Source: Proteobacteria bacterium UBA5680
Lineage (GTDB): Bacteria; Pseudomonadota; Gammaproteobacteria; Arenicellales; UBA5680
Reading direction: 5' to 3'
Assembly: GCA_002420425.1 (NCBI GenBank)
Contig: DIIC01000043.1
Span: 26,989 to 90,988, forward strand
DNA length: 64,000 bases
The notes under the pieces are model-generated. The model was not told the origin of the DNA. It saw nothing but the letters and a program-made list of their open reading frames with translations, and did no database searches. Made by a program: the position numbers and the translations under genes. Shown here piece after piece: positions 4,103-64,000 of this stretch. The first letter of the stretch is position 1. Every line of letters starts with the position of its first letter.

Positions 4103-4549
4103 CCTCTGTCGCCACCGGTCTCAAATCTTATTTGCAGAGTGTAAAGGATACGACAGTGTGGGTAGAGAAAAAAGCACAATAACAGACAATTGTTTTTCTA
4201 TTCCAAATAGTTATAACTCGTGATCCGCTGGTAAACAGATTATGCCAGTGGTGTGGGACTGTTCACTGGTTTAGGGTATACCGTGAGGTCTATTAAGCTC
4301 ATGGTTTTTATCTGATCACACAATCAATGGGTCCGGTAGCGAACGGCCGAATAGGTTATCGATGCCAGGGGTTGTAAGCGTTGATGTTGGCATCCTGGAT
4401 CTCAGTGGCAATGGTATGGCAGCGGAGCGTTTCAGATCGATGCCGGGTGGCAGAGATCATCCTGATTTGGGTTTGATTTGATTAAAACCGCGACCAGCGG
4501 CTAATTCGAATTGACCTCAAAACCTGTGACACTTACCATCTAGCCCACC

Positions 4550-6280
4550 ATGGCTGACCACACCCAAAACAGATGTTCAACAACCCTTAAGGGGGTTCTT
4601 CTCATCCTTCCCCTCATTCTGGGAGGGTGTACTCTGACGACCATTCAGTCAGAGTCCAGTTTACCGCTGAAAAAACCTACAGAGCCCGCGATACAATCAG
4701 TCGAGAAGGAAGCCAGCCCTGAAATTAAATCTGTAGTTGCAAAACCCCAATCAGAGGAGGAGCTGGCTACCACAACAATGGCTGCGCACCCGGATGTCGA
4801 CAACAAAGAAGAGCCCTTTTCAATAACTACACTCTTTACCAGCTCTTTTTGGAATCCCCCCCCAAAAAAGCAGACACTGGAAACACTCGCACTGGCAGAA
4901 CCTCCCGTCTATCAAGATATCTGGGAACGAATCCGAGCCGGTATGAAACTCCCTAAACTCAATAGTCCCTATCTTCAACACCAAGAGCAGTGGTATGCCA
5001 AACGACCTGATTATGTATTGCGACTGACCGAGCGCGCCAGGCGATATCTTTTCCATATTGTTGAAGAGGTTGAACGCCGGAATATGCCAATGGAAATTGC
5101 ACTCCTTCCTGCCATTGAGAGTGCTTTCCGCCCCAGTGCCTATTCCCGGGCTCGAGCGGCAGGGCTGTGGCAGTTTATACCCAGCACTGGTCGCAAATTC
5201 GGGCTTAAACAGAACTGGTGGTATGAGGGGCGCCGGGATGTTGTGGCGGCAACAGATGCGGCTCTTAACTACCTTGAATATCTGCATAAGTTATTTAAAG
5301 GGGATTGGTTTCTTGCCCTTGCCTCCTACAATGCCGGTGAATCGCGAGTGGGTAGAGCGGTCCGCTATAATCGCAAACATGGCCGTCTCGCAACCTACGA
5401 ACATCTTAAACTAGCTTCTGAAACAAAGAATTATATCCCTAAGTTAGTGGCTTTTAGCAAGATCATTGCTGATCCGGACAGCTTTGGTATCACCCTGGCA
5501 ACGATACCCAATGAGCCCTATTTTAAATCTGTTGATGTAGGCTCACAGATTGACCTTGGAATTGCGGCGACGATGACCGGAATCCAGCACAAGGAACTTT
5601 CGGCCCTTAATCCGGCCTTCAGTCGCTGGGCTACAGACCCCGCCGGCCCCCATCATCTACTCCTGCCTGTTGCCCAGGCTGACAATATGGAGACCGCCCT
5701 AAAAGCACTACCCATGAGCAAGCGAATGCGATGGGCCCGACACAAAATTCGTGGCGGGGAGAGTCTTAGCGTTATCGCCAGACAATACAATATCCCGATA
5801 AATTCCATAAAGAGCGCCAACCGACTTACAAGCGATCTGATTCGTGAAGGCAAACACCTGCTTATTCCACTCTCTGGCCAGCGTTATGCCACTACAGCAA
5901 TGTTGAACAACCAAACCCCGCCGATCAAGATCTCTCAGCCGATCACCTATAAGGTTCATCGGGGAGATTCTCTGTGGAAAATTGCCAGACGGTATGGATC
6001 GTCAATTGAGAGCATCAAAAAGGCAAACAACCTTACCAAAACCCTGATTAAGCCAGGAATGCGTCTAACCATTCCGGCAAAATCTGCTACTCGCCAGGCA
6101 GCAAAAAATAACTCTCAGCCCGCCCTGACGAAGCAGACACATAAAGTTCGCAGAGGAGATTCACTCTGGAAGATTGCAAAGAAATATCGAGTGCAAATAG
6201 CCCAGCTCACTAAATGGAACCGTATCAATAAAAAGGCCCTTCTCATGCCTGGACAAAAACTTGTGGTCTATACGCGTTGA
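4550..6280 (+). CDS. mltD: membrane-bound lytic murein transglycosylase D with three LysM repeats
   Basis: Lipoprotein-like N-terminus (LILGGCT). SLT catalytic region ESAFRPSAYSRARAAGLWQFIPSTG ... AYNAGESRV. Three LysM units (GGESLSVIARQYN, RGDSLWKIARRYG, RGDSLWKIAKKYR). Confidence 0.85.
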   Translation: MADHTQNRCSTTLKGVLLILPLILGGCTLTTIQSESSLPLKKPTEPAIQSVEKEASPEIKSVVAKPQSEEELATTTMAAHPDVDNKEEPFSITTLFTSSFWNPPPKKQTLETLALAEPPVYQDIWERIRAGMKLPKLNSPYLQHQEQWYAKRPDYVLRLTERARRYLFHIVEEVERRNMPMEIALLPAIESAFRPSAYSRARAAGLWQFIPSTGRKFGLKQNWWYEGRRDVVAATDAALNYLEYLHKLFKGDWFLALASYNAGESRVGRAVRYNRKHGRLATYEHLKLASETKNYIPKLVAFSKIIADPDSFGITLATIPNEPYFKSVDVGSQIDLGIAATMTGIQHKELSALNPAFSRWATDPAGPHHLLLPVAQADNMETALKALPMSKRMRWARHKIRGGESLSVIARQYNIPINSIKSANRLTSDLIREGKHLLIPLSGQRYATTAMLNNQTPPIKISQPITYKVHRGDSLWKIARRYGSSIESIKKANNLTKTLIKPGMRLTIPAKSATRQAAKNNSQPALTKQTHKVRRGDSLWKIAKKYRVQIAQLTKWNRINKKALLMPGQKLVVYTR

Positions 6281-15800: not shown

Positions 15801-16526
15801 ATGTCATCACTCTATTATTTCATTTCTGACCTGCACCTTACACCAGAAAAACCTGATATCCAGGATAATTTCATCCAATTCCTCGACTCCCTGGAGCCAC
15901 AAACTTCGGCACTCTATATTCTTGGGGATCTTTTTGATTACTGGATTGGTGATGACGCAGCACTCCGGCTTGGACACGAGTCGATTATCAAGATCTTGAG
16001 CAAACTCTCTGATCGAGGCACTGATCTCTTTTTTCTACCTGGAAACCGTGATTTTCTCGTCGGCGATCACTTTGCCAAGGAGAGCGGTTGTCATCTCCTT
16101 GATGACCCCTCCCGGGTGATGCTTAATGGCACCTCGATCCTGCTCACCCATGGCGACCTCCTGTGCACTGATGACACGGCCCACCAGAAGTTTCGCAGCG
16201 AGACCCGGAATGCCGATTGGAAGAACCACTTTCTTGAGCTTCCCATTGATCAACGGCAGAAATTTGCGCTTGATCTTCGATCTCAAAGTAAAGATCTGAA
16301 ACAGAAAAAGCCAAGTTTTATCATGGATACAAATCAAAATAGTGTTGAAGAGATCATGCTGGATAATGGGGTTCACACCCTTATCCATGGACACACTCAT
16401 CGGCCAGAAACCCACCATTTTGACCTTGATGGCTCACCAGCGACCCGAATGGTGCTGGGAGACTGGTCTCCTGAAGCCAGTTTTATCCGACTCGATGAGA
16501 GCGGCTTTTTCCTGAAGAAGGCTTAA
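15801..16526 (+). CDS. lpxH: UDP-2,3-diacylglucosamine diphosphatase
   Basis: Calcineurin-like motifs ISDLHL, GDLFDYWIGDD, GNRDF and HGHTHRP. ATG 15801 is used. The track TTG at 15675 adds a non-homologous 42-aa extension. Confidence 0.9.
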   Translation: MSSLYYFISDLHLTPEKPDIQDNFIQFLDSLEPQTSALYILGDLFDYWIGDDAALRLGHESIIKILSKLSDRGTDLFFLPGNRDFLVGDHFAKESGCHLLDDPSRVMLNGTSILLTHGDLLCTDDTAHQKFRSETRNADWKNHFLELPIDQRQKFALDLRSQSKDLKQKKPSFIMDTNQNSVEEIMLDNGVHTLIHGHTHRPETHHFDLDGSPATRMVLGDWSPEASFIRLDESGFFLKKA

Positions 16527-16555
16527 ACAGCAGACCCTGCCCTCCTGGTTCAGAG

Positions 16556-18076
16556 CTACTGACAGGCATACACCTCGGTATTATCAAGTTCATTCTGCTT
16601 CTGATCCGACTTTACTGAATCACGCCGGGAGTTCTCAACCCTCTCCAGGTATTCACTGCCTACATCCCCGGTTAGATAGATACCATCAAAACAGGAGGTC
16701 TCATACTCAGTGATTGAAGCATTACACTCCCTGACAGAAGCGACCAGATCCTCCAGATCTTGATAGATCAGCTTGTCCGCTCCAATCTCAAGAGCAATCT
16801 CATCTACTTCTCGATTATGGGCAACAAATTCCTCGGAGCATGGCATATCGATTCCATATACATTGGGATAGCGGACAGGAGGTGCCGCTGAGGCGAAATA
16901 GACCTTTTTGGCACCTGCATCCCTCGCCAACTGAACAATCTGTTTTGAAGTCGTCCCCCTGACAATTGAGTCATCAACCAGCAAAACCGCTTTTCCGGCA
17001 AATTCCTGATCGATGACATTTAGTTTCTGCCGCACCGATCGTTTTCTCTCTGCCTGGCCTGGCATGATGAATGTCCTGCCCATATATCGGTTTTTGATAA
17101 AGCCTTCACGATAGTTAACCCCAAAGGCGTAAGCCATCTGCAAAGCCGCAGTACGACTTGTATCAGGAACCGGAATGACCACATCGATTTCGTAGTCTGG
17201 CCACTCTCGGAGCACCTTTTTTGCCAGTCGCTCACCCATATTCAGACGGGTGCGATGAACTGGAATATCATCAATGATTGAATCGGGTCTTGCCAGATAG
17301 ACAAACTCAAATATACATGGATTATGAGAAACCTCTTCAACACACTGATGAGAGTGGACGTTCCCCTTAAGATCAATGAAGAGTGCCTCACCCGGTCGAA
17401 TATCACGTTCGATCTGATACCCAAGAACATCCATCGCAACACTCTCAGAAGCAACCAGGTGTGAAACCCCTTTGTCATCATTCATGGTTCCATAAATCAA
17501 TGGTCGTATTCCATACCGATCCCTGAAAACCAGCAACCCATAACCAACAATCAGTACCACTACCGCATAGGCGCCATGACATCGTTCAAAGACACCCCTG
17601 ACAGATCTAAAAAGGTCTTCCGGGGTCAACTCTGTTCGACCTCCACCCATAACCTCATGGAGTTCATGGGCAAGTACATTCAATAAAATCTCAGAATCAG
17701 AGCTGGTGTTCAGCTGCCTTAAGCCTTCTTGAAAAAGTTCATTGCGAAGATGGTCAGCATTGGTCAGATTGCCGTTATGACCGAGTGCCAATCCAAAAGG
17801 GGAGTTAACATAGAAAGGTTGGGCTTCTGCTTTGGAATCTGATCCTGCGGTAGGATAGCGGACATGGCCGACCCCCATATTGCCCTTGAGCTGAACCATA
17901 TGGCGATTATGAAAGACATCACGTACCAGCCCATTGTCTTTTCGCAGATAGACCTGACGTCCATCACTGGTCAAAATGCCGGCAGCATCCTGACCGCGAT
18001 GCTGAACGACCGTCAGTGCTTCGTAGATTACCCTATTAGCGGGATGAGGGCCCACCAGCCCAACAACGCCACACAT
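16556..18076 (-). CDS. purF: amidophosphoribosyltransferase
   Basis: N-terminal MCGVVG (Ntn Cys) and the PRPP loop VLLVDDSIVRGTT. Confidence 0.95.
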   Translation of the reverse strand: MCGVVGLVGPHPANRVIYEALTVVQHRGQDAAGILTSDGRQVYLRKDNGLVRDVFHNRHMVQLKGNMGVGHVRYPTAGSDSKAEAQPFYVNSPFGLALGHNGNLTNADHLRNELFQEGLRQLNTSSDSEILLNVLAHELHEVMGGGRTELTPEDLFRSVRGVFERCHGAYAVVVLIVGYGLLVFRDRYGIRPLIYGTMNDDKGVSHLVASESVAMDVLGYQIERDIRPGEALFIDLKGNVHSHQCVEEVSHNPCIFEFVYLARPDSIIDDIPVHRTRLNMGERLAKKVLREWPDYEIDVVIPVPDTSRTAALQMAYAFGVNYREGFIKNRYMGRTFIMPGQAERKRSVRQKLNVIDQEFAGKAVLLVDDSIVRGTTSKQIVQLARDAGAKKVYFASAAPPVRYPNVYGIDMPCSEEFVAHNREVDEIALEIGADKLIYQDLEDLVASVRECNASITEYETSCFDGIYLTGDVGSEYLERVENSRRDSVKSDQKQNELDNTEVYACQ

Positions 18077-59164: not shown

Positions 59165-60295
59165 ATGAATAATCCTACTATTGTAATAAGCGGTACAGGC
59201 CTCTTCACCCCCGCCGAACTGATCACCAATGAAGAGTTGGTTGAGAGTTTCAATAAGTATGCTGAGCGGTTCAATTCCTCACATCACGATCAAATTGGAC
59301 GAGGGGATCTAGAAGCCATACCACTGTCGAGCGTAGAGTTTATTGAGAAGGCGTCCGGAATCACAAAACGCTACGTCATCGACAAACGGGGCATCCTCGA
59401 TCCCGAAGTGATGGCGCCACAAATAGCAGAGAGGACCAATGATCAACAGTCACTTCAGTGCGAAATATCGGTTGCCGCCGCTCAGCAGGCTCTTGAAGGT
59501 GCAAATCGTCAAGGTGGAGAGATTGATGCCGTTATTGTCGCCTGTTCAAATATGCAACGCCCCTACCCCGCTATGGCAATAGAGGTTCAGGAGGCGATTG
59601 GGGCCCAAGGATTTGCATATGATATGAACGTGGCATGTTCATCTGCCACTTTTGGCATGCAGGCCGCTTATAATGCGATTATCTCAGGCTCAGCAAGTCG
59701 GGTGTTGGTCGTCAATCCTGAGATCTGCTCAGCCCATCTGGACTGGGAAGATCGTGACTGCCACTTCATTTTCGGCGATGTCTGTACTGCGATTATTCTA
59801 GAGAGGGAGAGTGAAGCGCTCTCTGACCATCGATGGGAGATACTCGGCACCAAGCTAAGCACCCAATACTCAAACAATATTCGTAATAATTTTGGCTTCC
59901 TCAATCGCTGCGATCCTGCTGGCATTGGAAAGCCGGACAAACTCTTCAAACAGAACGGACGAAAAGTATTTAAGGAGGTCTGCCCGATGGTGGCACAGTT
60001 GATCACTGACCATCTGGGTGAGCTCAACATCAAAACTTCAGATCTCAGTCGAATGTGGTTACACCAAGCGAACCTGTCGATGAACAGACTGATCTCAAAA
60101 AAAGTGCTGGGAAAAGAGCCAACGGAACAAGAGGCTCCTGTCATCCTCAACCACTATGCAAACACGAGTTCTGCTGGATCCATCATCGCCTTTCATCTCT
60201 ATAATGCTGATCTCAAGAATGGAGATCTCGGGATAATCTGCTCCTTTGGTGCGGGGTACTCAATCGGGAGTATTATTATAAAAAAACAGATGTAA
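59165..60295 (+). CDS. beta-ketoacyl-ACP synthase III family protein (long, ~375-aa subgroup)
   Basis: KAS III catalytic triad context: NVACSSATFG (Cys), WLHQANLSMN (His) and YANTSSAGSI (Asn). The N-terminus, VISGTGLFTPAELITNEELVESFN, is typical of the long FabH-like subgroup. Confidence 0.8.
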   Translation: MNNPTIVISGTGLFTPAELITNEELVESFNKYAERFNSSHHDQIGRGDLEAIPLSSVEFIEKASGITKRYVIDKRGILDPEVMAPQIAERTNDQQSLQCEISVAAAQQALEGANRQGGEIDAVIVACSNMQRPYPAMAIEVQEAIGAQGFAYDMNVACSSATFGMQAAYNAIISGSASRVLVVNPEICSAHLDWEDRDCHFIFGDVCTAIILERESEALSDHRWEILGTKLSTQYSNNIRNNFGFLNRCDPAGIGKPDKLFKQNGRKVFKEVCPMVAQLITDHLGELNIKTSDLSRMWLHQANLSMNRLISKKVLGKEPTEQEAPVILNHYANTSSAGSIIAFHLYNADLKNGDLGIICSFGAGYSIGSIIIKKQM

Positions 60296-60437
60296 TCTGA
60301 GTAAGGCGGCGGCCTTGCGGATCGTTCGCTCCAACACCGACTGTGTTATCAACAGAAAATCCTGAGTGCTTCCAGGCCAGGAGCCGGTGGGCAAACTCCT
60401 CGGTGATGGCTTCGTCTTCAACCAGGTAATCCAGTAC
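60296..60437 (-). mobile_element. relic fragment of an IS91-family (Y2/HUH rolling-circle) transposase gene
   Basis: The minus-strand frame gives VLDYLVEDEAITEEFAHRLLAWKHSGFSVDNTVGVGANDPQGRRLTQIT. From memory, the W(K/R)HSGFSV..N core and flanking pattern match the central region of IS91-type transposases. The fragment is truncated on both sides by the convergent flanking genes. The track ORF 60260..60442 is in a different frame. Confidence 0.5.
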
Positions 60438-60447
60438 TGCATGAATT

Positions 60448-61065
60448 TTAATAGAGATACTTACTCAGTTCCAACCGAAACACAGTAAATACCAGCAGGA
60501 ACAGGATCATTTCTGCCACTGTGACCACATACAAGATATAGGTAATACGACGTGCCATCGGTTTCATCGGCTGCCATATTTTGCGCATATACCATGGCCA
60601 GCCGGGAACCCATGACCAGCGCTTCCATCGATGCAGGTAGCCGTGCAGGTCGTTTCCCCAATTGACCAGGCTTTTGTCCACCTCATCGATACGCTGTTCG
60701 CGTTCACTCGCCGGGGTTCCAGAATAGTCGTCAGTGACGATCAGTCTGGAGTTGCCGTCGTCCTTTGGTTCAACATGGAAACTGGTAGAAGTGCGCAGGC
60801 CCTGCTGGTAGCTAACCTTGATACCATCATCCGAGCTATCTATGCTGAGCGCTGATTCCAGCAGCCTGCCATTGCTCAGATTTTTTAATTTAAAGCTAAA
60901 TTCTTTGTCGTTAATTAACTGCCAGCTATCAAACACCAGCATCGAATTGATTCGATATAAGCGTTCTATATCGTCCAGAAATGCGCGTAATTCTTTGGTA
61001 TTAAAAGGTGTATCGATACTGACCCAGGCAGAATCTTCATTGTCTGGAACGGAGCTTTCACTCAT
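60448..61065 (-). CDS. hypothetical protein: START/SRPBCC-like soluble domain with a C-terminal Trp-rich segment and TM anchor
   Basis: A 205-aa protein. The secondary-structure pattern (beta, a long helix NTKELRAFLDDIERLYRI, a beta-rich middle, then a C-terminal helix) suggests an SRPBCC fold. This is followed by WKRWSWVPGWPWYMRKIW and the TM helix ITYILYVVTVAEMILFLLVFTVF. I recognise no family motif. Confidence 0.5.
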   Translation of the reverse strand: MSESSVPDNEDSAWVSIDTPFNTKELRAFLDDIERLYRINSMLVFDSWQLINDKEFSFKLKNLSNGRLLESALSIDSSDDGIKVSYQQGLRTSTSFHVEPKDDGNSRLIVTDDYSGTPASEREQRIDEVDKSLVNWGNDLHGYLHRWKRWSWVPGWPWYMRKIWQPMKPMARRITYILYVVTVAEMILFLLVFTVFRLELSKYLY

Positions 61066-61529
61066 GGTTTCGGGTAAGGAACTACTATCAATGACATGGT
61101 CAGCGAGCGAGCCAACAGCTCCAGATCCATGCGTGAGCGATAACCCTCAACGCCTTTGGGTCGCGGTGAACCAATAACAGCTAGACCAAAATCATCCTGC
61201 CCGGCAACATCTAACAAACAGATCGCCGGTTTGCCCAGGCGCACCGTGTTCGAGTAATTAATACCAGCCTGATCACAGGCTTGTGTCATACGCTCCAGTT
61301 CAGCTGCGGCTTCTTGCGCCAACTGACTTTCCACATAGTTGCCAAATCGAATCTGGGTAACTGCGTTATTGAGCCAGTCGTCCCCCATCATTCCTTTCCA
61401 GAAATCCGGCACCACCAGAAGCTGGTGCAGGCTGGCGCCTTTTTCGACACATAAATCGATAGCTGCCAGCTCGGCTGCGCGGGCACCATCCGTACCGTGA
61501 CTGGCAAGAATTATTTTTTTAACTTTCAA
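61062..61529 (-). CDS. universal stress protein family (adenine nucleotide alpha-hydrolase-like) protein
   Basis: USP-like layout (KKIILASHGTDGA ... LAVIGSPRP ... SLIVVP). The canonical G-2x-G-9x-G(S/T) ATP motif is not obvious. TTG start. It shares an ATGA overlap with the downstream 205-aa gene. Confidence 0.6.
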   Translation of the reverse strand: MKVKKIILASHGTDGARAAELAAIDLCVEKGASLHQLLVVPDFWKGMMGDDWLNNAVTQIRFGNYVESQLAQEAAAELERMTQACDQAGINYSNTVRLGKPAICLLDVAGQDDFGLAVIGSPRPKGVEGYRSRMDLELLARSLTMSLIVVPYPKP

Positions 61530-61570
61530 GGAATACTGTTAACGCTGAACACCCGTCGGGTGAATTCAGA

Positions 61571-61606
61571 AAATAAAAAAACCTGGCGCCCATTAAGAGC
61601 GCCAGG
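61571..61606 (-). terminator. rho-independent terminator
   Basis: Minus-sense CCUGGCGC-ucuuaaugg-GCGCCAGG is followed by UUUUUUUAUUU. It lies 22 nt after the stop of the 56-aa ORF. Confidence 0.8.
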
Positions 61607-61628
61607 TGCACTGGATGTGCTACACAGT

Positions 61629-61799
61629 CTATGGGACCATAATGTAAACGCCAAGGGCTATTGCCATCGCTGCTAGCAGCGCGATAAAATCCTCGGCACG
61701 GTCACTGTGGAATATTGACAATGCGGAGCCGCGATGGAACTTGGCATCCGCTTCTTCTTGCAGGTCGGTGTCCTGCGAATCATGTTGTTGATCTGTCAT
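61629..61799 (-). CDS. 56-aa tail-anchored miniprotein (acidic N-terminus, single C-terminal TM helix)
   Basis: ATG 61799 is preceded by GGGGGA at a 7-nt spacing, 12 nt after the transporter stop. Translation: MTDQQHDSQDTDLQEEADAKFHRGSALSIFHSDRAEDFIALLAAMAIALGVYIMVP. A terminator follows. It is below the ORF-track length cutoff. Confidence 0.5.
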   Translation of the reverse strand: MTDQQHDSQDTDLQEEADAKFHRGSALSIFHSDRAEDFIALLAAMAIALGVYIMVP

Positions 61800-61813
61800 T
61801 TCTCGATCCCCCG

Positions 61814-63376
61814 TTAAATAGTTTCACTGACAAAAAATAATATCACAATCAGTGACAGCACCGCCTTAGTCGTTCCGACGATACCGCCGATTACAAGCGG
61901 TTGGCCGCCAGCCTGTTTCATCGATGCAAAAGTTATTTGCATACCAAGACCGGTTAAACCAAATGCAAACAACAGAGTAATCCACTGCCTGAATTTGCTG
62001 ATCTTCTTGGCGGTGTGCCTAACTGCCTTTGTCGCCCCTTTAAGCACTTTGTTGGCGTCCTTGGAGAGGACCTTAGCATTATAGATACCGCGGATAACAG
62101 TCTCATCGTCGATGGTCATAACCTTGCGGTTATCAAGCATGCGTTTGAGCGCCTGCTTGCGGTCGTCTCTTTGCAGTTTGCCCATTTCAGAGCTGACCGC
62201 TGAGATCTGATCATCCTTTAGCAACATCGATTGCTTGACGTTATTGTCGAAATACTTGCCCTTGTAATGCTGCGCAGGCGCAAAAACACCAGTAGATGAC
62301 AACGCGAACATGAGGATAAAGCCCAGCACGAATACTGGAAATTTTTCGAATATCACGGCTCCGACGTTAACCTGTTGGGTAGTTTCTCCACCCTCCTGTT
62401 TAACGTACCAGACTGCTAACCATAAAACGATTATCGGCAAGAACAGCACACGCGTAATATTGAATATCTCGGCTACCTTGAGCGTCTCGATGCCGTCTGG
62501 CTGATACGCTAATGCCGCACCAGCGACCTGCGCAGAATTCAATATACCGGTACCGGCCCAGGCACCAAATTGAATATGACCCAGATCCAGTATATGCCCG
62601 ATAACCGGGAACAGGAACATACAGCCGACACCCCAGATAAGAATGGTACCAATGGTATAGGCGATTTCGACAGCCTTGGCCTGCACTACCGGGGCCGCTG
62701 CAACCGACGCGGACACACCGCAGACACCCATACCGGCTGAAAGAACACCGCCCATGGAACTTGGGATATTACGCCGCTTACCCAGAAACAGTACCAACCC
62801 CACCGAACCCAGTACAAAAAAGCCAACCATAATAGCGGATAGCTTACCGAGTGACTGGAGTTCCGCCAGACTGTACAAAGTACCGAGCAGGATAACACCG
62901 GTTTTCAGGCCAAATCGCGACAGACGAACACCGTTTTCGGCCCACTCAGGGATCTTGAAAACATTAACGATGATGATACCGGCGACTATACCCAGTACGA
63001 CATAATTGAGTCCGAGCACCTGATGCAGGTATTTAGCGCCCATCACCGGCCCCAGGCCAGTACTAATCAAAGCAACCAATGGCGCCAGATACCAGCGAAC
63101 CAGCATCGCCACCAGCAGGATAAATATCGCGCCAGCAACTGTGGACATGTAGTAGTCTAAATTACCTTCTTCATGACTACCAGCCAAGTGCCAGAGCCCG
63201 ACAACAACGGCAACTGCACCAAAGGCGTAGCCCATACCTACCATTTCACCGGCATATTTACCGGCCTTCAGGTAATCGATCAATCCTGATATACCGCCTG
63301 AATCAGCGAGATAAGCAATTGCCACAAAAATAATACCCATAATCAACAAGGCAGGATGCTTTTTTGTATATACCAT
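61814..63376 (-). CDS. YeiH/UPF0324 ('putative sulfate exporter') family membrane protein, enlarged variant (520 aa)
   Basis: It is collinear with E. coli YeiH blocks (SAGMGVCGVSASVAAAPVVQAK, GAWAGTGILNSAQVAGAA, FGLTGLGMQITFASMKQAGGQPL). It also has about 125 extra N-terminal residues with TM helices and a ~95-aa Lys-rich hydrophilic insert. ATG 63376 has an AGGAGG SD, and the track start at 63457 is an over-extension. Confidence 0.75.
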   Translation of the reverse strand: MVYTKKHPALLIMGIIFVAIAYLADSGGISGLIDYLKAGKYAGEMVGMGYAFGAVAVVVGLWHLAGSHEEGNLDYYMSTVAGAIFILLVAMLVRWYLAPLVALISTGLGPVMGAKYLHQVLGLNYVVLGIVAGIIIVNVFKIPEWAENGVRLSRFGLKTGVILLGTLYSLAELQSLGKLSAIMVGFFVLGSVGLVLFLGKRRNIPSSMGGVLSAGMGVCGVSASVAAAPVVQAKAVEIAYTIGTILIWGVGCMFLFPVIGHILDLGHIQFGAWAGTGILNSAQVAGAALAYQPDGIETLKVAEIFNITRVLFLPIIVLWLAVWYVKQEGGETTQQVNVGAVIFEKFPVFVLGFILMFALSSTGVFAPAQHYKGKYFDNNVKQSMLLKDDQISAVSSEMGKLQRDDRKQALKRMLDNRKVMTIDDETVIRGIYNAKVLSKDANKVLKGATKAVRHTAKKISKFRQWITLLFAFGLTGLGMQITFASMKQAGGQPLVIGGIVGTTKAVLSLIVILFFVSETI

Positions 63377-63760
63377 ATTTCCTCCTAGACTATTTATTTT
63401 TTCTGTACGTTTACTGAGTAGTGAAAAGACAGTTATCGAAGTTCTTATCCATGCCACACCAGCCCAAATAGTGCCTGATGGTAACCAGACTATACTCTCC
63501 GTAAATAGAAAAAACGAGGTCAGGGGTGGTGTTAATCCCTACTAACTGTAAGTAATTAAAAAATAAGCAATTTATTCAATGCCAGTCCGCTCTGCGGGTC
63601 AAAAATAACTCAAGATGAGGCAGGGTTTGCTTGAAGAGCGGGCCTGGTAAACAAGTTCCATTCTGATTGGACTATTCGGCATTACAATCTGAAAAAGGCA
63701 AAGTAAATATCTGTCTGACAATTTTATTACCTGGTTGAAGATATTGTTGTGCACAGTCCA

Positions 63761-64000
63761 TCATGAACTAACTATTATTGGTTCCACTTCTTGTCTGCCC
63801 TGAATCAGCGCTGAACCCGCCTCCAGTGCTCTCAAACTTATCTCTGCTATCGCCGGTTTTTGGAATGCTGTTATCGCTTCGGCGAATGCATCTAGATTAA
63901 TAATATCGGAGTCTTTCACGAGTGCTGCCAGAGCTAAGATGCCAATAGATAGACGATTAACTTTCTTAGCAGTAGCAATTAACGGTAACCGAATAATTTC
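63761..64000 (-). CDS. 3' end (79 codons) of a gene resembling the gamma (POR) domain of 2-oxoacid:ferredoxin / indolepyruvate oxidoreductases; partial
   Basis: The frame is open from the window edge to TGA at 63763..63761. The sequence ...RLPLIATAKKVNRLSIGILALAALVKDSDIINLDAFAEAITAFQKPAIAEISLRALEAGSALI... resembles the POR-domain C-terminus (N..mLGA...l...e.l.eai...f....N..A...G). Confidence 0.4.
   Translation of the reverse strand, partial: EIIRLPLIATAKKVNRLSIGILALAALVKDSDIINLDAFAEAITAFQKPAIAEISLRALEAGSALIQGRQEVEPIIVSS

Follow-up and report, generated by a model that had tools for sequence, protein, structure and literature searches.

A universal stress protein and a tail-anchored SRPBCC-fold protein are encoded in the distal half of a conserved, mobile four-gene cassette with a divergent YeiH/PSE-family transporter

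In a stretch of 64,000 nucleotides (nt) from Proteobacteria bacterium UBA5680 (Gammaproteobacteria, Arenicellales; GenBank assembly GCA_002420425.1, contig DIIC01000043.1, positions 26,989 to 90,988 of the forward strand), referred to below as the window, two overlapping genes on the minus strand encode a universal stress protein (USP)-like protein of 155 amino acids (aa) and a 205-aa protein of the SRPBCC fold that ends in a transmembrane (TM) helix. An earlier note, made from the letters of the window, had treated these genes as a self-standing two-gene module; the pair is instead the distal half of a conserved four-gene cassette, read on one strand in the order transporter, small open reading frame (ORF), USP, SRPBCC-TM. 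Synteny was scored with profiles built from the window proteins in 80 loci fetched from species-representative genomes, and the denominators given below are the loci with enough sequence. The USP gene lay directly upstream of the SRPBCC gene in 74 of 75 loci, so the absence of conserved co-occurrence, which the earlier note had named as grounds for giving up its proposal, was not found. A small ORF of ~55 aa was present in 71/73 loci (54–56 aa on the contigs of the first homologues inspected), and a YeiH/PSE transporter gene in 58/60, spanning three proteobacterial classes; three loci reached independently via the transporter all held the four genes in the same order (3/3). We read the USP and SRPBCC-TM proteins, with roughly an even chance of being right, as one half of an anion-export cassette of four components, a half that would be translated together, made in low amounts and used for regulation or ligand sensing. 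The stress-responsive sensor/effector pair of the earlier note would then be better recast as the accessory or regulatory pair of the transporter. The features of the cassette, in window coordinates, are:

60305 to 63698, minus strand: full span of the cassette, from the promoter region through the four genes to ~140 nt of 3′ flank, defined by comparison with a second genomic context.
60448 to 61065, minus strand: gene for the 205-aa tail-anchored SRPBCC/START-fold protein of a new family (ORF with ATG start; AlphaFold2, Foldseek, conservation and hydropathy).
61062 to 61529, minus strand: gene for the 155-aa USP-like protein (ORF call, TTG start, PF00582).
61571 to 61607, minus strand: intrinsic-terminator-like GC hairpin of 11 bp (hairpin at 61607 to 61581) followed by a T-run, between the small ORF and the USP gene.
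61629 to 61799, minus strand: gene for a 56-aa tail-anchored peptide (ORF, recurrence across loci and hydropathy).
61814 to 63376, minus strand: gene for a 520-aa divergent YeiH/PSE-family transporter (PF03601, TC 2.A.98; Pfam, BLASTP and homologues).
63513 to 63538, minus strand: promoter-like motif of extracytoplasmic function (ECF) type, GGATTAAC-N13-TCGTT, which begins 162 nt upstream of the transporter ATG.

The two minus-strand ORFs were recovered at the same coordinates as in the earlier note, with the overlap that it had described: the tetranucleotide ATGA at 61062–61065 comprises the TGA stop of the USP gene and the ATG of the 205-aa gene. Of 77 distinct USP/SRPBCC junctions, 59 had the stop and start overlapping, 41 at −4 nt and 18 at −8 nt. 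The 205-aa family had 324 database relatives, all unnamed and ~205 aa long (nearly all 200–213 aa); because so many relatives share this length and the overlap is kept at most junctions, both genes are real well beyond chance. When the family profile was compared with 1.84 billion cluster representatives, only 184 clusters were retrieved at E ≤ 0.001, and the family is therefore small and tight.

The 205-aa window protein had no match in Pfam, NCBIfam or PDB sequences (phmmer), and a profile search of the PDB with its family returned chance matches only, the best being snake-venom L-amino-acid oxidases (E 0.09–1.1); in line with the earlier note, which could not assign it to a family, no well-characterised family claims it. 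An AlphaFold2 model built on 35 homologues (mean predicted local distance difference test score, pLDDT, 86; predicted template-modelling score 0.75) has a β-α-α-β6-α topology, with a first strand at residues 12–18, helices at 23–30 and 33–38, six strands and a long helix at 133–149, which is the helix-grip arrangement of the SRPBCC/START/Bet v 1 superfamily; a short helix (156–164) and a 36-residue helix (169–204) follow. Foldseek retrieved 122 PDB matches to this model at E ≤ 1e-3, and the 50 matches listed were all of SRPBCC/Bet v 1/START type with probability 1.00 and 9–21% identity, led by the Pfam-COXG protein 2ns9 (E 2.6e-6, 21% identity); the mycobacterial START protein 5z8o, DR_A0006, polyketide aromatase/cyclases, PR-10 allergens and PYL receptors were also among the leading matches. 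The START/SRPBCC fold that had been proposed for the N-terminal ~150 residues was thus borne out by both structure prediction and structure comparison. At the level of sequence, no significant match to the curated SRPBCC families (Polyketide_cyc2, COXG, START, AHSA1 and others) was obtained; 4/35 members matched Polyketide_cyc2 at E 0.0014–0.01, below the gathering score, and the window protein did not match it. Because the structure matches SRPBCC proteins while sequence profiles detect the relation only faintly, the fold call is right and the family, although of SRPBCC fold, is new at the sequence level.

The protein is divided into a helix-grip domain (~12–149), a Trp/Pro/basic interfacial segment (150–168) and a TM helix (~169–204). 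The Trp/Pro/basic stretch, WKRWSWVPGWPWYMRKIWQPMKPMARR, is the most conserved part of the protein, with W150, P154, G155, W156, Y159, W164, M167, P169, R172 and R173 invariant in 35 sequences, and Glu185, in the middle of the TM helix, is likewise invariant in the family. Hydropathy detected one hydrophobic segment (173–204) after this stretch, and conservation, the AlphaFold2 model and hydropathy agree on the single C-terminal TM anchor behind a Trp-rich interfacial segment that had been suggested earlier. Within the domain, the most conserved positions are polar or charged (D32, E34, R35, R38, N40, N62, Y86, D112, Y114 and D130). The juxtamembrane segment carries a net charge of ~+8 and the SRPBCC domain a median of −7; because of the former, the positive-inside rule predicts that the domain is cytoplasmic and the protein tail-anchored with its N-terminus inside. 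Glyco_trans_2_3 matches in 15/35 members (13–17 bits against a gathering score of 27) were rejected as homology to GT2 glycosyltransferases because the glycosyltransferase domain is absent; they span only residues ~140–196 (window ~60478–60648), matching the portion of GT2 enzymes that has the QxxRW-like motif, an interfacial helix and a TM helix (compare L(H/Q)xWKRWSW), and the resemblance is probably a convergence of interfacial membrane segments.

The 155-aa protein was assigned to PF00582 with a score just over threshold (27 bits against a gathering score of 24, residues 3–130); a precomputed PF00582 match is present in most of its homologues, and its sequence match to MJ0577 is weak. The absence of the canonical ATP-binding motif from this protein, to which the earlier note had drawn attention, extends to the whole family: G-x2-G-x9-G[ST], the motif that marks the ATP-binding USP subclass of MJ0577/UspFG type (PMC3673472), was found in 0 of 67 distinct members, window protein included. 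When aligned to MJ0577, the window protein reads G120-S-P-R123 ... R133-M134, in which the second and third glycines are replaced, and an invariant Arg-rich loop, GSPRP(K/R)GxxGxRSRM, stands where the ATP motif would be. Two further blocks, ASHGTxGAxAAE and VVPxxWKGMxGDDWLNN, are also invariant. The USP is a distinct subfamily, and we infer from its altered loop that its ligand is not ATP bound in the classical manner.

The transporter belongs to the YeiH/PSE family by PF03601 (150 bits against a cutoff of 24.5) and is 28% identical to Escherichia coli YeiH over the core (BLASTP, E 3e-14); against TIGR00698, "YeiH family putative sulfate export transporter", it scored 71.9 bits, well under the cutoff of 232.6. 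Its ATG at 63376 follows AGGAGGA, and the ORF stays open up to a GTG at 63457. Relative to the family core it is lengthened by ~120 aa at the N-terminus and by a basic helical insert of ~100 aa (residues 366–465) that E. coli YeiH does not have; Lys and Arg abound in the insert, the net charge of which has a median of +12 (range +5 to +17 in 33 homologues), and by the positive-inside rule it should be cytoplasmic. This positive charge complements that of the acidic SRPBCC domain and of the acidic N-terminus of the 56-aa peptide. The AlphaFold2 model of the transporter was poor (pLDDT 54), probably due to an overly uniform alignment, and was confident only in the N-terminal extension and the helical insert. 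In the 56-aa peptide itself, a variable acidic N-terminus precedes a conserved RG..L..F..DR.ED core, and residues 35–56 form a C-terminal TM segment. Identity across homologues was 75–92% for the transporter (across classes), 60–91% for the USP and 53–87% for the SRPBCC protein.

Between the small ORF and the USP gene, an intrinsic-terminator-like hairpin with a T-run was found in 55 of 76 distinct loci, whereas 1.6 were expected from dinucleotide shuffles, and its position is kept across classes; RNAalifold recovered 11 consensus pairs, all with compensatory changes. The hairpin begins ~21 nt past the stop of the small ORF and the USP start follows it by a median of 37 nt (range 8–305); in many loci the T-run ends only 8–25 nt before the USP start codon, and in these closest cases no room is left for a promoter. 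No clear Shine-Dalgarno sequence was seen at the USP start in the upstream sequences of the loci inspected. Because the closest cases leave no room for a promoter and the USP start in the inspected loci has no recognisable Shine-Dalgarno sequence, the hairpin may be a partial terminator or attenuator, in which case the USP/SRPBCC pair would be less abundant than the transporter and the peptide. The sequence of the stem is also largely kept between Alpha- and Gammaproteobacteria (ACCYGGCGY...GGGCGCCRGGT; alignment A5), which could reflect a protein-binding site or a horizontal spread of the whole cassette. Rfam contained no known RNA family matching positions 60200–64000.

Upstream of the transporter, a family promoter consensus, GGAATAAA-N15/16-CGT(T/C), was present in 16/55 loci, mostly those that carry an ECF sigma gene; the window motif (63538 to 63513) is slightly off this consensus, and no ECF sigma gene lies within the 64-kb window. 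An ECF sigma gene together with a gene for a ~265-aa single-TM partner preceded the cassette in 20 of 54 loci; the sigma factor passes the TIGR02937 cutoff, and the N-terminus of the partner weakly resembles anti-sigma factors. Regulators beside the cassette vary with the lineage: second, divergently placed ECF/anti-sigma-like pairs occur in two loci (L010 and L074), and in another (L091) a gene for a Crp/Fnr-type regulator (4214–4981) is directly upstream of the cassette. Across the surveyed loci, neither an enrichment of LysR genes nor an adjacent YeiE-type regulator was seen near the cassette, and no conserved neighbours were found beyond the cassette and the ECF pair.

The cassette family was recovered from at least 134 species of Alpha-, Beta- and Gammaproteobacteria from marine, sediment and groundwater habitats, including Nitrosomonas aestuarii Nm36 (L059), a metagenome-assembled genome (MAG) assigned to Sedimenticola thiotaurini (L065), Thiogranum, Thiohalophilus, Acidiferrobacterales, Thiohalomonadales, Kiloniellales and Rhodospirillales. 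In the window population, the cassette occurs in two otherwise unrelated contexts, one between POR and fabH/orn/queG and the other between an Mrp antiporter operon and a pair of genes for a histidine kinase and a sigma-54 regulator. The stretch common to both is only 3,396 bp long with 98.9% DNA identity (L004 7368–10761 versus L005 7368–10762), including ~320 nt upstream and ~140 nt downstream of the genes; because nothing else is shared, the cassette moves as a block with its promoter region. Similarity stops at the borders; neither genes of mobile elements nor obvious terminal repeats were seen, and the base composition of the cassette showed no anomaly. Convergent with the cassette in the window is a fabH-like gene (59165–60295, plus strand) that encodes a 376-aa enzyme assigned to the NCBIfam equivalog PRK07515, "beta-ketoacyl-ACP synthase III" (634 bits), and distinct from canonical FabH (TIGR00747, 132 bits only, under the cutoff); a 60-aa ORF at 60260–60442 (minus strand), which overlaps the end of this gene and has no family match, is probably not a gene. 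A role in anti-phage defence was also considered and set aside, as none of the four proteins matched a PADLOC model at E ≤ 0.1.

In the anion-export reading, the cassette would be an inner-membrane system built round the divergent YeiH/PSE secondary transporter, which would form the transport unit with the ~55-aa tail-anchored peptide, whereas the USP and the SRPBCC protein would be translationally coupled accessory subunits. The terminator would let only part of the transcripts run on into the USP gene, which lacks a Shine-Dalgarno sequence, and the overlapping SRPBCC gene; because of this arrangement, the two proteins would be made in equal amounts but below those of the transporter. The cytoplasmic SRPBCC domain, kept flat against the membrane by the TM anchor and the amphipathic, Trp-rich stretch, would bind a small ligand and, with the USP, gate or tune the transporter, perhaps by docking on the conserved basic cytoplasmic insert of the latter; in many genomes, an envelope signal would turn the cassette on through the adjacent ECF sigma/anti-sigma pair. 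Sulfite or a related sulfur oxyanion would be the most likely class of substrate, and within this reading a sulfite-type substrate is the leading guess, itself less likely than not. In Salmonella, yeiH is the key determinant of sulfite stress resistance (PMC12880088), the YeiH of Hyphomicrobium denitrificans is encoded by the most strongly thiosulfate-induced gene (526-fold) and was proposed to be a sulfite exporter (PMC11582611; bioRxiv 10.1101/2025.02.17.638619), and the Bordetella pertussis homologue BP2808 has been implicated in sulfur homeostasis (bioRxiv 10.64898/2026.04.22.720190). Many of the hosts, as judged by record titles, are sulfur oxidisers (such as Acidiferrobacterales, Thiohalomonadales, Sedimenticola, Thiogranum and Thiohalophilus), and two sets of dissimilatory sulfur genes were seen no more than 8 kb from the cassette: sat in four distinct loci, and aprBA in two, one with qmo/hdr-like genes (L008 1120–3556 and 8631–9806; L037; L053; L093 8736–9908), a nearness that is suggestive but thin.

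Several observations weigh against this reading. The nearness of sat and apr comes from few loci, some of them related, and the hosts also include Nitrosomonas and many MAGs of Rhodospirillales and Kiloniellales. The transfer of a substrate from YeiH is weak because the identity is 28%, the TIGR00698 score is 71.9 bits against 232.6, and no YeiE-type LysR regulator is encoded nearby. SRPBCC domains usually bind hydrophobic ligands, not oxyanions. One locus (L089, a Thiotrichaceae MAG) has the USP and SRPBCC genes beside enolase and kdsA and no adjacent transporter, another (L080) has the SRPBCC gene alone, and the terminator could equally mean that there are two separate transcription units. 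The anatomy of the cassette, the folds, the synteny, the coupling and the hairpin are direct results; that the proteins form a physical complex, which way regulation runs, and what the ligand and substrate are is what we infer. In L089, a second, partial SRPBCC-TM homologue begins where the fetched sequence ends (16431–16598); this genome may hold two copies, one perhaps inside a full cassette.

The features of the SRPBCC protein would also suit a CoxG-like handler that extracts a quinone or lipid through a membrane-facing cavity and presents it to the USP or the transporter, by which the redox or lipid state of the membrane, instead of a soluble ligand, would be coupled to the module. CoxG has the same architecture, with a C-terminal helix as the tether of an SRPBCC domain; the protein binds menaquinone, which it extracts and carries to a soluble enzyme, Mo-CO dehydrogenase (PMC12202499; review PMC13525633); the best Foldseek match in the PDB is a Pfam-COXG protein, and in the model hardly any chain separates the last helix of the fold from the Trp-rich interfacial helix, which would force the domain onto the membrane surface. 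This explanation is nevertheless considered unlikely: PF06240 (COXG) matched 0/35 members even at E ≤ 10, neither a coxLMS-type molybdoenzyme nor any other redox enzyme is encoded in the cassette or kept next to it across loci, the linker is short and nearly invariant and not a flexible tether, the most conserved domain positions (the D32 to D130 set) are polar or charged, and the domain as a whole is acidic, in contrast to CoxG, where lysines form a positively charged region round the cavity opening. A catalytic SRPBCC protein, of the aromatase/cyclase or lachrymatory-factor synthase type, or a chaperone for transporter assembly or biogenesis, with the USP as a cofactor, would account for the many invariant polar residues of the 205-aa family, for the Foldseek matches to the aromatase/cyclases TcmN, WhiE and ZhuI (target-normalised TM-scores up to 0.69) and for the weak scores of some members against Polyketide_cyc2; however, sequence identity to any enzyme is 10–14% and no enzymes that would supply a substrate or use a product are conserved nearby, and this role is regarded as very improbable.

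The strong conserved terminator ahead of the USP gene bears on a further explanation, in which it is a true operon boundary and the pair acts autonomously, for example as a membrane-stress sensor, being merely co-located or co-regulated with the transporter. Such autonomy would agree with the pair beside enolase and kdsA in L089, where the transporter is not nearby, and with the faster evolution of the USP and SRPBCC proteins (about 55–70% identity) than of the transporter (75–92%) over comparable taxa; but the transporter is adjacent in 58/60 loci of three classes, in which the other neighbours are all variable, the T-run ends so near the USP start in many loci (8–25 nt) that a promoter has no room, and the cassette moves as a single 3.4-kb unit. 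An autonomous pair is judged quite unlikely. In the other direction, all four products might form a previously unseen secondary-transporter holo-complex, with an SRPBCC ligand receptor or hand-off subunit at the cytoplasmic face, a non-nucleotide-binding USP, an acidic micro-peptide and a stoichiometry set by the attenuator. The SRPBCC domain would then serve as an inward-facing "substrate-binding protein" for the exporter or as a switch gated by membrane lipid or quinone, and the Arg-rich loop of the USP would bind an oxyanion or sulfur nucleotide; this more elaborate proposal is put forward as a speculation of low probability.

No paper on this cassette or on the 205-aa family was found in a literature search. 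The folds, taken singly, and the principle of regulating a transporter through a USP are known already; what is new is the gene combination, the SRPBCC family, the altered loop of the USP and the attenuator inside the operon. YeiH/PSE transporters have only recently been tied to sulfite detoxification, and the four-gene cassette, with its clear borders, its mobility and three accessory proteins of its own, gives genetics a way into the control of such transporters. It also provides a second, sequence-unrelated case of the CoxG-style tail-anchored SRPBCC architecture, and the USP subfamily with its nucleotide loop replaced, together with the new SRPBCC family, widens the known roles of common folds. 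If sulfite or sulfate is indeed exported, the cassette would bear on the poorly known route by which sulfur oxidisers clear oxidised sulfur from their cytoplasm. Possible routes to direct experiments include N. aestuarii Nm36, the S. thiotaurini MAG and heterologous expression of the cassette.

Among known systems, the YeiE-YeiH sulfite-stress system of Salmonella, Cronobacter, H. denitrificans and B. pertussis shares the PF03601 transporter, the core of which can be aligned with E. coli YeiH; however, E. coli YeiH is 349 aa long rather than 520 aa, without the extension and basic insert, canonical YeiH works without the three accessory genes, and the LysR regulator YeiE is replaced here by an ECF sigma/anti-sigma pair or other regulators. 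The architecture of the 205-aa protein, which the earlier note had put forward within a candidate novel system, is not unprecedented: CoxG of Mycobacterium smegmatis and Oligotropha carboxidovorans (PF06240) likewise has a cytosolic SRPBCC domain with a single C-terminal anchoring helix and is encoded beside its functional partner (PMC12202499). The present family differs in having no PF06240 match, in its partners, a USP and a YeiH-family transporter rather than Mo-CO dehydrogenase, in its short, nearly invariant, Trp-rich linker, which is flexible in CoxG, and in its acidic domain with many conserved polar residues. The PYR/PYL/RCAR abscisic-acid receptors and other Bet v 1-type sensors have the same fold and are a precedent for a ligand-gated switch of protein-protein interaction; the former are soluble plant proteins, 10–13% identical and without a membrane anchor, and the analogy is one of mechanism only. 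For the USP, a parallel is TeaD, which, according to Schweikhard 2010 as cited in PMC3673472, regulates the TeaABC ectoine TRAP transporter of Halomonas elongata. Both are small stand-alone USPs encoded with a transporter, which TeaD modulates; TeaD binds ATP via a near-canonical G-2x-G-9x-GS motif (table in PMC3673472), whereas the present USP is without the ATP motif and is coupled to a membrane-anchored SRPBCC partner. The closest published analogue that combines a PSE transporter with USPs, compared here by description, is DVU0542-DVU0545 of Desulfovibrio vulgaris, an operon in the order USP, PSE transporter, 133-aa single-TM protein, USP, in which molybdate stress brings out opposite fitness phenotypes, one USP being required and the transporter harmful (PMC10102598). 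That operon differs in the order and number of its genes and in its regulation by a two-component system, and its DVU0544, at 133 aa, is too short to hold both an SRPBCC domain and a TM helix.

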